Of a DNA stretch of 64,000 nt, positions 3,950 to 62,470 are shown in pieces. The notes beneath the pieces are model-generated. The model saw only the letters and a list, made by a program, of their open reading frames with translations, made no database searches and was not told the origin of the DNA. Position 1 is the first letter of the stretch, and every line of letters begins with the position of its first letter. The position numbers were made by a program, and so were the translations under genes. The stretch is from Octopus sinensis. Lineage: Eukaryota. Location: the NCBI RefSeq assembly GCF_006345805.1, contig NC_043005.1, forward strand, positions 109,554,001-109,618,000, given 5' to 3'.

Positions 3950-4260
3950 TAGTTACGGAGATGTACTTGCATAGCAAGTGACCTAATCTGAGATTGTGTG
4001 CTGGAACGAAAACAATTGCAGCGTGGAAGGTGTTTATAAGCCATTTAAGAAACACACAAAAACCGTTAGATTTAAATTTAATTTGTCAAAATATTTTCTT
4101 CGCTTTGAGACCACGACCTGTTCACAGAGTGTTGTCAGTGAACAGGTCGTGGTCTCAAAGAGACAAAAATATTTTGACAAATTAAATTTAAATGTTGAAG
4201 TGAATCTAACGGTTTTTGTGTGTTTCTTAAATGGCTTATAAACACCTTCCACGCTGCAAT
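3950..4260. mobile_element. Palindromic PLE-terminus-like element nested in the hAT MITE
   Basis: Inverted arms 4015-4125 / 4138-4260 with a 12-nt loop; flanked by short (TA)n; carries a hammerhead-like motif. Confidence 0.7.
4132..4180 (+). ncRNA. Minimal type I hammerhead ribozyme-like motif, G3-C8 core variant (decayed)
   Basis: UUGUCA-GUGAACA-G-GUCGU(GGUCUCAAA)GAGAC-AAAA-AUAU-UU-UGACAA; the mirror arm supplies GCGAA-GAAA, so the two-arm consensus is an intact fold. Confidence 0.55.
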
Positions 4261-4714
4261 ATATATAATGGATATAATAAAAGTTGACAATTTTTTAAAT
4301 CTTATATTTATTTTGTAAACAAAGAATACAATATTACATAAGCATTCTATAAGCATTTTATAAGGTTTCTTTTTTTTCTGGAAACTTGCCGTATACAGGC
4401 AGCTGATGGCTTGCAGACTGGCACAGGCCCATGAGCCATCACTTTGAGTAGCACTGCTTTAAAGTACAATCTAAAACAGAACACCAAATTTTATTTCTCA
4501 CCTGTAGATTAAAACTTCTAATTTCATAGTTGGGAGTTTAGTAAGTCAATTCGATGTAGGGGCAAAACAATTGTCATATCTGCAGTAGATGTATGTTTTT
4601 CTGTGTAAGAAGTTTTTTATCCCATGTACTCTGACTTGCTATTTATTGCTACATATGCATTTGAGAAACTTTGCATATATATATATATATATATATATAT
4701 ATATATATGCATGC

Positions 4715-4875
4715 ACAGGAGTGGCTGTGTGGTAAGGAGCTTGCATCTTAATGACATGGTTCTGGGTTCAATTCCACCGTGTGGCACCTTCGGCAAGTAT
4801 TTTCTACTATAGCCTCAGGCCGACCAAAGCTTGTGAGTGGATTTGGCAGACAGAAACTGAAAGAAACCTGCCGTG
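4715..4875 (+). mobile_element. SINE family A, 5' half
   Basis: Family A head through AAACTGAAAGAAACC, ending in (TA)n. Confidence 0.85.
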
Positions 4876-5169
4876 TATATATATATATATATATATATAT
4901 ATATAATAATAATAATAATAATATATTGAGGGAATATTATTCCAAACTTACAGGGAAAAATTCAATTTAGAAATACTAAATCAAATTTCTCAAAATATAA
5001 TATATTTATAAATTAGAAAAAAAACATCTTTTATCAATTCAAAATGAAAAATTAAATTACACCAGCTAGAAAATTACATATAATAGAAATATTAAATATA
5101 AGATAAAAAATAATATACCAATGATTAAGTAATGTGCAAAATAATAAATAAAATGTATATATTTTGTAG

Positions 5170-5272
5170 AATAACGACACGTGTTTCATAGCTGTATTTA
5201 AGAAATGATTATAGTAAAGATATTAGTAGTAGTAGTAAAATCACTTCAATATAGCCACTTATCAGGTTTTAT
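5170..5272 (-). ncRNA. Type I hammerhead-like motif with extended stem II
   Basis: Minus strand AAAAC-CUGAUAA-GUGGCUAUAUUGAAGUGAUU...AAUCAUUUCUUAAAUACAGCUAU-GAAA-CACGU-GUC-GUU; palindromic ACACGUGU and GUC site; G8 is A. Confidence 0.55.
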
Positions 5273-5310
5273 TAATTATTTTTATTTATTATATTTATTA
5301 TATATAAAAA

Positions 5311-5764
5311 ATCAAATCAAACCAAATCAAAATAGATGAACATCAATGGAATTTGTATCTTTGTGATACCAGTGCTGGTGGCACATAAGAAAACCATCCG
5401 AACGTGGCTGTAGCCAGTATCGCATCAACTGGCCTCCGTGCTGTGGGCACGTAACAAACACCATCCGATCGTGGCTGTTCGCCAGCCTCGTCTGGCACCT
5501 GTGTCGGTGGCACATAAAAAACACCATCCGAGCATGGCCGTTCGCCAGCCTCGTCTGGCACCTGTGTCGGTGGCACATAAAATCACCCACTACACTCTCG
5601 GAGTGGTTGGCATTAGGAAGGGCATCCAGCTGTAGAAACACTGCCAGATCTGACTGGCCTGGTGCAGCCTTTGGGCTCCCCAGATCCCAGTTGAACCGTC
5701 CAACCCATGCTAGCATGGAAAGCGGACGTTAAACGATGATGATGATGATGATGATGATGATGAT
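5311..5764 (+). mobile_element. RTE-type LINE 3' UTR fragment with (GAT)n tail
   Basis: ~62-bp internal subrepeats, GGTTGGCATTAGGAAGGGCATCCAGCTGTAGAAAC block, ends GGACGTTAAAC(GAT)n. Confidence 0.75.
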
Positions 5765-5864
5765 AAAATATATACGTTTTATTTATTATTTTGCACATTA
5801 CTTAATTATCGGTATATTATTTTTTAATCTTATATTTAATATTTCTATTATATGTAATTTTCTA

Positions 5865-59478: not shown

Positions 59479-59986
59479 TGTGCTTATATATACATATATA
59501 TATATATATATATATATATATAAATTTATATAAATAAGGATAAGATCGTCATTTAAATACTGATCTTATCAGGTGGCCAGCATGGGAATAAAAACCTTCA
59601 AAGTTAATAATTATTATTAAAATTATAATTTAGGGCATCTAAGAGATACCACCACGCTGGAAATAGCAGCCAAAACTTGACTTTAAAACCACATTAAAAG
59701 TTCATACAGCACTATGAGAGAAGCCGAGACAAAATAAACAAACAAAAAAAATTACTGGATAATTCCAGATCCCGGATTTCTGACTTTGTTGTGACAGCAT
59801 CTTTTTCAGGAGCATTGTTTGTTTGCATCAGTTTGAGGGCATTTTTGATTTCACTGATCAGAAGAGGTGCCACCTGTTCCAGCATTTGTGGAGGTGTGGT
59901 TTAAACTTTACTGAGGATTTAAAAAGTTTGGAGGTTTTGCGTATCTCCTCCATACACACACACACACACACACATATATATATATA

Positions 59987-60406
59987 CTCTTTTACTCTTT
60001 TACTTGTTTCAGTCATTTGACTGCAGCCATGCTGGAGCACCGCCTTTAGTCAAGCAAATCGACCCCGGGACTTATTCTTTGTAAGCCCAGTACTTATTCT
60101 ATCGGTCTCTTTTTGCCGAACCGCTAAGTGACGGGGACGTAAACACACCAGCATCGGTTGTCAAGCAATGCTAGGGAGACAAACCACAGACACACAAACC
60201 ACACACACAACACAGACCATATATATATATATATACATATATACGACAGGCTTCTTTCAGTTTCCATCAACCAAATCCACTAACAAGGCATTGGTCATCC
60301 CGGGGCTATAGCAGAAGACACTTGCCCAAGATGCCAAGCAGTGGGACTGAACCGGGAACCATGTGGGTGGTTAGCAAGCTACTTACCACACAGCCACTCC
60401 TGCGCC
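59987..60406 (-). mobile_element. SINE family A, full length
   Basis: Reverse complement of family A. Confidence 0.9.
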
Positions 60407-60481
60407 TATATATATATATATATATACATAAATTATATAATATATATATATATATATATGCATATATATATATATATATAT

Positions 60482-60720
60482 ATAGTTAATCCAAACATTG
60501 AACAAGCAAGAAAAAACAACAATGTGAGGACGTGGAATCAGTACAGTGTTATTGGATGCTCAGGAAAGAAGAAAAAAGAAACATGATTTCACGTTTCGAG
60601 CGGGGCTCTTCATCAGAAATATAGAAAAGATCCAAAGAAGGGAAGACAGAAAGAAATTTGCCAACGATACACACATACACAAGCGGTCAACATTTAAAAT
60701 GACCAGAAGGGAATGGGTGA
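60482..60720 (-). mobile_element. Family F PLE-terminus-like element
   Basis: Abuts (TA)n; homologous to 19180-19400. Confidence 0.7.
60586..60620 (-). ncRNA. Minimal hammerhead motif with canonical core
   Basis: AUUU-CUGAUGA-A-GAGC(CCC)GCUC-GAAA-CG-UG-AAAU; position 17 is G, so probably non-cleaving. Confidence 0.65.
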
Positions 60721-60969
60721 AGAAAAAGTTCTTTCAAATACAGGAGAGTGCAAGAGAAGGAGATATGTATGTGTATGTCTGTGTATGTGTGCAGGTCTGT
60801 GTGTGTGTAATGATAACACGTGTTTGTGTGTGTATGTGTGTGTGTGGTTGTGGTTGTTTATGTATGTGTGTGGTTGGACTTTAAGGTCTTTGTGCCTTTA
60901 AGGTCATAGAAAGAATTTATAATAAGAATTTCAGTAGGAGTGGCTGTCTGTTGTGTGTCTACCAACACA

Positions 60970-61140
60970 AGAAATAGTAGTATGACAAGGCACCGATGTA
61001 TGCTGGTAATAGCAGTTGATAACAATACAACGCTATGTAAAGCTTTACTGAAATATATATTGTGAAGCTTTATAAAGCGTCATATTGTCATTGATTGCTA
61101 TTTCCACCAAACATTGGTGCCTTGTCATAGCACTATTTCT
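60970..61140. repeat. Imperfect ~170-bp palindrome (MITE-like)
   Basis: AGAAATAGTAGTATGACAAGGCACCGATGT... / ...ACATTGGTGCCTTGTCATAGCACTATTTCT. Confidence 0.8.
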
Positions 61141-61749
61141 CATTTATAATTCTACCCATACAGTGCTTTATTTGACTGGAAAGTAATACTATTGTATGGC
61201 AATGATATTTAAAATCTTATATCACTCACCCATGTATGTGCTATATGCATACATATATATTCCCTTATTCTCTAACTTGTTGCAGTCATTTGACTGTGGC
61301 CATGCTGGAGCATGGTTGAACAAATTGACCCCAGAACTTATTTCTTAAGCCAAGTACTTATTCTATCAGTCTCTTTTGCTGAATCAATAAGTTACAGGGA
61401 CATAAACACACCAGCACTGGCTATCAAGCAGTGATGGGGCCAAACAAGGCACAAAGACATGCACACACACGCACACAGACACACACACACAGATACACAC
61501 ACACACACAGACACACACACACAGAGACACACACGCACACACGCACACAGACACACACAGACACACACACACACACACACAGACACACACACAGACACAC
61601 ACACGCACACAGACACACACAGACACACACAGACACACACACACAGACACACACACACACACTCATACATACATACATACATACATGCATACATACATAC
61701 ATACATACATACATACACACATATATATATATATATATATATATATATG

Positions 61750-62470
61750 CACAGGAGTGGCTATGTGGTAAGAATCTTGCTTCCCAACCACAAGTGTCTT
61801 CTACTATATCCTCAGCTGACCAAAGCCTTGTGAGTGGATTTGGTAGATGGAAATTGAAAGAAGCTGGTTGTATATATATTTTCTAGTTTCTCTCCCTGTT
61901 TATTTCTCTGTTCCTTTCTGTCGAAGAGCAAGGGCTCGAAACATAAAAGACTTTTTCAATTCCTGTGTGTTAAACTAATACATCTGTTTGTTGTTTACAC
62001 ACCTGTCTTTGTCTTTTGTTTTTTTTTTGTAAATTCTTACTATATATATGTGTGTGTGTAGGGGAAGAATTCACAAAAAAAAGATGAAGACAGTTGTGTA
62101 AACAACAAACAGATGTATTAGTTTAACACACAGGAAGTGAGAAAGTCTTTTATATTTCGAGCCTATGCTCTTTGACAGACAGGAACACAAAGAAATAAGA
62201 AAAGAAAAGAAAGAGAGAAAATAAAGAATGTGTAGTGGCTAGTGATCTATGTATGTATATATATATATATAAATGTATGTATTTGTGTCTCTGTTGGTGT
62301 GTTTATGTCACCCGTTACTTAGCAGTTTGACAATAGAGACCAATAGAATAAGTATTAGAATAAATACTAGGCTTACAAAGAATAAGTCCTGGGATCGAAT
62401 TGTTGAACTAAAAGGTGCTGCTCCATCATGGCCACAGTCAAATGACTGAAACAAATAAAAGAATAAGAGA
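61750..62470 (+). mobile_element. SINE family A split by an inverted PLE-terminus pair
   Basis: 5' half 61750-61870, 3' half ~62280-62470. Confidence 0.8.
61880..62250. mobile_element. Tail-to-tail inverted pair of hammerhead-bearing elements
   Basis: ~61900-62040 is the reverse complement of ~62065-62200; plus arm CUUU-CUGUCGA-A-GAGC(AAGG)GCUC-GAAA-CA-UA-AAAG at 61914-61949; tail remnant also at ~58953-59030. Confidence 0.75.

Follow-up and report, generated by a model that had tools for sequence, protein, structure and literature searches.

Six families of short dispersed elements carrying minimal hammerhead motifs occur in a 64,000-nucleotide stretch of the Octopus sinensis genome (contig NC_043005.1, positions 109,554,001 to 109,618,000 of the forward strand; we call this whole stretch the window). 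In our reading, to which we give a probability of roughly 0.8, five of them are 5'-truncated 3' ends (pseudo-long terminal repeats, or pseudo-LTRs) of protein-coding Penelope-like elements (PLEs), with minimal type I hammerheads whose cores are fixed by family: C3-G8, U3-A8, G3-C8, or C3-G8 together with U6. The motifs are likely slow ribozymes that would need either dimerisation through a palindromic stem III or help from an element protein, and RNA that was capped and uncleaved likely gave rise to the short copies. The families are named by window site: A4 (4.1 kb), E5 (5.2 kb), D19 (19.3, 53.1 and 60.6 kb), C34, B47 and F62. Genome-wide pattern counts were taken over the 2.72-Gb octopus genome, and identifiers such as L221 denote loci fetched from it.

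Core states of six hammerhead families

A first-pass annotation of the window had placed hammerhead motifs in about six short elements, with positions 3 and 8 reading G/C, U/A and C/G; we find the motifs there with these letters. Core position 3 lies at 4138+, 5265-, 19315-, 33987+, 47103-, 53102-, 60616- and 61918+, with inverted arms at 4125- and 62178-. The features are as follows.

3943..4276, left arm -, right arm +: A4, probable 5'-truncated PLE ends in a head-to-head inverted pair; left arm with core 4125 and the optional 3' tail
4132..4180, +: A4 minimal hammerhead; 6-7 bp stem I, GUGAACA, extra G, 5-bp stem II, AAUAUU, U17
4915..5297, -: E5 element body
5173..5268, -: E5 minimal hammerhead; CUGAUGA, no extra base, 7-bp stem II, 63-nt loop, ACACGUGU, C17; this copy has G8A
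19285..19319, -: D19 minimal hammerhead; CUGACGA, extra A, 4-bp stem II, ACGU, U17; this copy has G12A; element 19169-19416
33978..34025, +: C34 hammerhead-like motif, U4C subfamily; long stem I, 2-bp stem II, GCAA loop, ACUC-A-GAGU, A17; element from 33969
47071..47106, -: B47 intact minimal hammerhead; UUGAAAA, extra U, 5-bp stem II, AUAU, U17, 3-bp stem I; element 46976-47134
47137..47445, +: B47 PLE coding remnant (linker and start of the GIY-YIG endonuclease); tblastn identity 74-81% to natural B47 open reading frame (ORF) pieces
53072..53106, -: D19 decayed hammerhead; U4C, G12A, stem II mismatch, ACAU; element 52953-53154
60586..60620, -: D19 hammerhead; canonical CUGAUGA with G17; the copy reaches upstream into the 3' untranslated region
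61914..61949, +: F62 minimal hammerhead; CUGUCGA, extra A, 4-bp stem II, ACAU here (family ACGU), A17; element 61878-62049
62044..62223, -: F62 second inverted arm; core 62178, G8A; tail-to-tail with the first arm

Each of the six elements is a dispersed repeat (955-4,362 first-look candidates per element), and the stems, GAA and palindromic stem III read from the window hold at family level, being found in the commonest natural copies of all six. GAAA, a palindromic stem III and U16.1-H17 are the commonest state in every family (stem III and residue 17: A4 AAUAUU-U; B47 AUAU-U; C34 ACUCAGAGU-A; D19 ACGU-U; E5 ACACGUGU-C; F62 ACGU-A). The 3-8 pair is Watson-Crick in 6/6 families. Literal CUGANGA is found in D19, E5 and most of C34, and not in A4 (G3-C8), B47 (U3-A8) or F62 (U6). 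One part of the scheme first proposed for all elements needs correcting: the extra nucleotide after the core is a G in A4 and is absent from E5. Stems I and II around the core with G10.1-C11.1 are present in A4, B47, D19, E5 and F62, with C34 departing from this arrangement.

The G3-C8 state is that of A4. With positions 3 and 8 left free, the A4 pattern has 6,813 matches genome-wide compared with 2 in the control, and among the first 100 of these the pair is G-C in 93, mismatched on a single side in 7 and C-G in none. G3-C8 is also seen in 40 of 47 natural copies (a set that includes 3 inverted-junction artefacts of the search pattern), which have a 5-bp stem II with two different loops, AAUAUU and U17. 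In contigs of four organisms, which inform on base states and cannot show ends or strand, no alternative letter makes up 2% or more at A4 position 3 or 8. Because of these two results, G-C within A4 is a fixed state and not intra-family variation. A sister family, whose protein is 55% identical to that of the A4 parent, has the homologous motif with C3-G8 in 17 of 18 copies, and stems I and II each hold one further compensated pair that differs between the two. This comparison, together with U-A in B47, upholds the 3-8 covariation claimed for the window. The sister's core reads CUGAUGC, with C at the conserved A9 in 18/18 copies (L449, L450, L472; about 550 nt past the ORF end), and its stem III is an incomplete palindrome.

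The other families are similarly uniform. Natural copies have U3-A8 in 28/29 for B47, and C3-G8 in 58/59 for C34, 32/33 for D19 and 26/26 for E5, where the extra base is again absent and the loop again 63 nt. The A6U variant, which the first-pass annotation listed together with U4C, is the rule in F62: the F62 pattern, whose flanks exclude D19 by design, has 19,993 genome matches, and the first 100 comprise 98 with U6, 2 with C6 and none with A6, while all four bases occur at N7. Most natural F62 copies have U6, as do 18/18 motifs detected in 30 loci chosen by protein similarity. U4C also occurs, as a minority: of 1,789 C34 matches, 21 among the first 100 carry it, and it is a subfamily state only, and at the 53.1 kb D19 copy it is one among several defects. 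D19 and F62 have a common scaffold, with A6 in D19 and a compensated outer pair of stem I that differs. The two are evidently related families, contrary to the description of the elements as unrelated. A partial F62-like copy without the hammerhead core region lies at 58906-59029.

A generic C3-G8 pattern yields 24,725 raw matches compared with 1,340 in the control. For A3-U8 the counts are 1,842 and 3,414, with no family visible among the first 100 matches; for G3-C8 they are 1,277 and 1,153, and apart from A4, which the pattern's H at the extra position excludes (A4 has G there), no further large family of that shape was seen. Minus-strand counts of these generic patterns include repeats of one site. 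When about 20,000 A6U and 6,800 G3-C8 matches are set beside the 24,725 canonical ones, the prediction that a strict CUGANGA search would miss many motifs is justified; in one animal genome, such searches can miss about as many as they find. One of the two commonest canonical families genome-wide, with stem II GGCUG/CAGCC, ACGU and U17 (L392), lies outside the six.

A strict descriptor, which forces an extra base and a 4-bp stem II and so misses E5 and C34, matches the window once, and each of 30 shuffles gives 0 matches; the fetched loci, a family-enriched set of 1.30 Mb, contain 161 matches versus 0 in 0.43 Mb of shuffled sequence. Looser descriptors gave many false (TA)n matches in the window and were left out of the counts. 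With Rfam, no family of any kind matches the window at the gathering score, and around the intact 47.1 kb copy no hammerhead match appears even with E up to 10; a scan of the window at E up to 10 has no hammerhead among the 150 matches listed of 625, where microsatellites matching microRNA families dominate.

The 3-8 pair is thus compensated across families and parent lineages through C-G, U-A and G-C. Since compensatory changes from lineage to lineage preserve this pair and the stems, we infer selection on the fold. The motifs are likely slow, conditional ribozymes under such selection, with catalysis by the U6 and G3-C8 cores putative.

Coding parents and copy ends

Five of the six families lead upstream into PLE coding sequence for a reverse transcriptase (RT), a GIY-YIG endonuclease, or both; E5 is the exception. 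Because of these ORFs, the five families are, as far as sequence can tell, 5'-truncated 3' ends of autonomous PLEs and not retrozymes. Among the copies the 5' ends vary and the 3' ends are fixed, and inverted partners and (TA)n flanks occur; all of this has been described for PLEs (PMC8557442). The copies are solo or head-to-head, and second matches for A4, B47 and C34 lie on the other strand; for A4, the only family counted, the first 100 places show no head-to-tail array, and there are 11 close inverted pairs versus 1 same-strand pair within 1.5 kb. The assignment to PLE-type minimal type I hammerheads is supported; the further label "non-autonomous PLE/retrozyme-like" has to be given up, given coding parents for five families and copies that are not head-to-tail. 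The A4 inverted pair of the window sits in a composite of about 2 kb that is itself amplified onto many chromosomes (L002-L004, L009-L018, L020-L023).

The parents differ in completeness. The A4 parent is a 793-amino-acid RT and GIY-YIG-type ORF (L221:1415-3793:-) about 1 kb upstream of the hammerhead, with 162 homologues, some of which carry PF00078, PF01541 or PF26215. The F62 parent is a 963-amino-acid ORF (L360:856-3744:+) with RVT_1 and GIY-YIG matches that ends about 290 nt upstream of the hammerhead, and upstream of D19 only the end of the endonuclease is found, with 55-62% identity to the F62 parent (L403, L408, L417). By a C-terminal motif, F62 and D19 are tentatively "Neptune-like", Nematis being the alternative. 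Upstream of B47 we find the RT C-terminus and GIY-YIG, the coding sequence ending 75 nt before the hammerhead; the window's B47 coding remnant is inverted, head-to-head with the B47 hammerhead copy. Among the parents of A4, B47, D19 and F62, candidates for the Neptune or Nematis clade, the linker motif is seen in the A4 and F62 ORFs only. The C34 parent, a 723-amino-acid ORF (L362:1359-3527:-) upstream of the motif, has RWK, DKT, a CxCX5C linker and CxxC beside a conserved E, and no CCHH; these marks, compared with the clade description in PMC8557442, suggest the Hydra-clade type. One PLE family of this genome is 98-99% identical to an Octopus vulgaris protein.

Several observations stand beside these. 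Directly 3' of the B47 hammerhead (window 47010-47070, minus strand) is a perfect 5' splice site consensus, AAG/GUAAGU, which in full-length copies is one arm of a hairpin of about 13 bp. A second U3-A8 minimal hammerhead family has its own 5-bp stem II and the palindrome AAUU or AAAUUU (L442-L445, L106), with a copy start about 14 nt upstream of the core. E5 copies have about 1.8 kb of common upstream DNA, which is AT-rich and internally duplicated. A Hydra-like ORF 4.3 kb upstream of E5 in L393 was rejected as its parent, its own motif and other repeats intervening. Besides the C34 parent, a second Hydra-like ORF (L393:2920-4900) is followed at a distance of about 770 nt by a hammerhead-like core of its own. 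The window also has decayed remnants of Hydra-like PLE coding sequence at 40754-41255 (+) and 19026-19166 (-), the latter abutting the D19 copy.

For A4, ends were mapped in 75 copies that had been selected with an anchor downstream; two tandem duplicates are among them. Of their 5' ends, 58 lie at -25 to -5 of the core, 5 further out and 12 inside or after the motif. We looked for a 5'-end peak at the cleavage site and found none, 2/75 copies starting there. The 3' ends cluster near +130 and from +187 on, giving two ends and an optional tail of about 58 nt, counted for A4 only. At -23, just before the common start, a hand count of 100 junction copies gives G 55, A 20, C 16 and T 9, and the A4 parent has C or T at this position. 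Reverse transcriptases can copy the cap, adding a base. We infer that the A4 transcript is capped and starts 22 nt upstream of the core, the extra G arising from copying of the cap. With the cleavage site located between this start and the priming sites, the copied RNA would be uncleaved, and it is likely to be capped as well. The common start also overlaps a CUAAC that resembles a branch point and a run of pyrimidines with YAG at its end (L162, L168, L179, L191-L220); besides being a transcription start, it may serve as a 3' splice site.

These ends fit a simple scheme. Transcription of a parent would begin about 20 nt before the hammerhead, as suggested for A4, and the parent's RT-endonuclease would nick AT-rich DNA and prime internally on the RNA, some 130 or 187 nt past the core, by the mechanism described in PMC11167929. 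Run-off to the RNA 5' end, or early truncation, would then leave copies of 150-300 bp, often as inverted pairs beside (TA)n. Mobility of this kind would tolerate, and may favour, weakened cores. It is tempting to hypothesize, and we do so with no great confidence, that the rewired cores (G3-C8, U6 and the sister's C9) reached tens of thousands of copies because the motif acts as a slow switch: uncut capped RNA would be reverse-transcribed, and cut RNA would lose its cap and leave the mobile pool.

Contrary evidence and alternative explanations

A number of results weigh against our reading. In the window, 47103- is the only one of ten copies that fits the strict descriptor, and most others are decayed: private damage includes G12A at 4.1 kb (with one stem II mismatch in the copy at 4132..4180), 19.3 and 53.1 kb, G8A at 5.2 and 62.18 kb, G17 at 60.6 kb, a broken palindrome at 53.1 and 61.9 kb, and the loss of stem I at 4125-; the 33987+ copy agrees with its own subfamily. 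In minimum free energy folds of dimers, an intermolecular stem III forms for C34 only and not for A4, B47, D19 or F62. The C34 family itself has a 2-bp stem II flanked by A-A or A-G, without G10.1-C11.1, and its monomer minimum free energy fold forms no hammerhead. In Pfam, the A4 and C34 parent ORFs themselves are unmatched, and for E5 the search of the roughly 1.8 kb that its copies share upstream yielded no parent ORF. Both the transcription start and the cap are deduced from DNA junctions of one family, A4; an extra 5' G in C34 is unsupported (1/11 copies, with a pattern that excluded A at the preceding position). For U3-A8 the generic pattern shows a weak excess, 5,281 versus 4,300 in the control. 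The B47 pattern with free 3 and 8 has 196 matches, of which the first 100 comprise 83 U-A, 4 C-G, 6 U-G and 7 other; the C-G excess is nominally significant (Fisher p 0.0016) but counts related copies, and in a tree the C-G copies are not a resolved clade (3 changes; 45/500 shuffles as low).

The variant motifs (A6U, G3-C8 and the sister's A9C) may no longer cleave at all, the fold serving as a structural signal, for example a protein-binding site or a promoter or translation element. A6U is fixed in about 20,000 matches even though a change at A6 lowers activity (A6C, <0.1 per min; PMC3088659), C9 occurs in every sister copy, the copies appear to derive from uncleaved RNA, and hammerhead mutants leave PLE insertion in vitro unimpaired (PMC11167929). 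Yet the 3-8 pair is Watson-Crick in all three of its states, G12-A13-A14, A15.1-U16.1 and H17 are retained, and drift is limited to N7 and the loops, a pattern that suits a catalytic fold; moreover, an engineered C3G/G8C change partly restores cleavage of a PLE hammerhead (PMC11167929). We regard a purely structural role as possible and our own reading, slow catalysis, as the better account. If instead the variant cores were neutral accidents, a mutated master would have been amplified irrespective of its RNA structure. That A4 internally shows one fixed state without covariation would fit, and each family state may be a single event, as U4C behaves. The change between G3-C8 and C3-G8, however, requires two complementary substitutions, in addition to the compensated stem pairs of the sister comparison, and U6 subfamilies differ at 2/36 hammerhead columns versus 41/117 flank columns, a disparity partly built in by the selecting pattern. 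We therefore find neutral amplification quite improbable.

The remaining alternative concerns the elements and not their cores: the short copies might be self-propagating, non-autonomous units of SINE-like (short interspersed element-like) or retrozyme-like character, with their own internal promoter and mobilised in trans. The A4 core has 6,813 matches compared with 496 that keep the upstream flank, the A4 5' end is sharply defined, the E5 upstream DNA lacks an ORF, and C34 copies with a non-parent 5' flank are all U4C (11/11). Against this, long-ORF parents carry the same motif in five families, longer copies of the U4C subfamily exist, and run-off from the parent's 5' end accounts for the defined start; the head-to-tail arrays that define non-LTR retrozymes (PMC7229834; bioRxiv 10.64898/2026.07.22.740005) are unseen among the A4 places counted. 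Such self-propagation seems unlikely to us, if somewhat less so than neutral amplification, and we prefer to view the copies as truncated ends of coding PLEs.

Other window features and relation to known systems

The window also contains palindromes at 10704-11186 (98.6%), 60970-61140 and 48256-48410, possibly other inverted PLE pairs. A SINE-like family of 420 bp has about 15 copies, including those at 1077-1547, 14739-15160, 28246-28700, 38320-38720, 40283-40704, 45130-45539, 47706-48131, 59077-59500 and 59974-60418; we take it to resemble the octopus OK SINE.

The role of hammerheads in PLEs is an open question according to PMC8557442 and PMC11167929. The octopus families offer natural comparison pairs, D19 (A6) with F62 (U6) on one scaffold and A4 (G3-C8) with its sister (C3-G8), and G3-C8 adds a natural third state to the 3-8 tertiary pair. 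The A4 copy ends lend genomic support to the in vitro finding that uncleaved RNA is inserted (PMC11167929). Should the slow-switch idea be true, the role of PLE hammerheads would become directly testable in sister families whose ORFs are intact and whose cores are distinguished by single positions. The surprise is limited, the element class and U3-A8 being known already. The set of Lunse et al. 2017 is said to hold about 150,000 PLE-associated variants.

In the literature searched, neither G3-C8 nor A6U turned up as a natural state fixed in a family; two works outside the comparison, Lunse et al. 2017 and Arkhipova et al. 2017, may list them. Minimal type I hammerheads of metazoan PLEs were described with the consensus CUGANGAH G...C GAAA by Cervera and De la Pena (2014; PMC4209133). 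The octopus motifs resemble them in the short stem I, a stem II of 4-7 bp with G10.1-C11.1, the extra base after A9, the palindromic stem III, the common U17, the pseudo-LTR location and the mostly solo or opposite-strand copies; U3-A8 was reported there from Schistosoma mansoni PLEs. Outside that consensus are the family-fixed G3-C8 and A6U, G as the extra base, the 63-nt loop II without an extra base (E5) and the 2-bp stem II (C34). Among natural core variants, U3-A8, U4C and A6C have reduced activity (Perreault et al. 2011; PMC3088659); these are rare single examples that, in the portion considered, do not include G3-C8 or A6U, in contrast to the family-fixed octopus states. The Hydra, Neptune and Nematis clades of PLEs are treated by Craig et al. 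(2021; PMC8557442), whose supplement includes a Hydra family of Octopus bimaculoides.

The closest mechanistic parallel is the Poseidon-Ac PLE hammerhead, with internal priming at two sites and protein-assisted cleavage (Frangieh et al. 2024; PMC11167929). Shared with it are the two 3' ends and optional tail, the AT-rich targets and uncleaved RNA as the main template, while the tail is about 58 nt in A4 versus 30-40 nt in Poseidon-Ac; G3-C8, there an engineered and partly active C3G/G8C control, is the natural state of A4, in 6,813 matches. Non-LTR retrozymes (PMC7229834; bioRxiv 10.64898/2026.07.22.740005) are likewise short non-coding units with a type I hammerhead and a relation to PLEs, but they form head-to-tail arrays with mostly canonical hammerheads and circular RNAs, whereas the octopus copies stand alone or in inverted orientation, with coding parents. 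PLE hammerheads and U3-A8 are thus published already, and family-fixed G3-C8 and A6U at this scale appear to be new.

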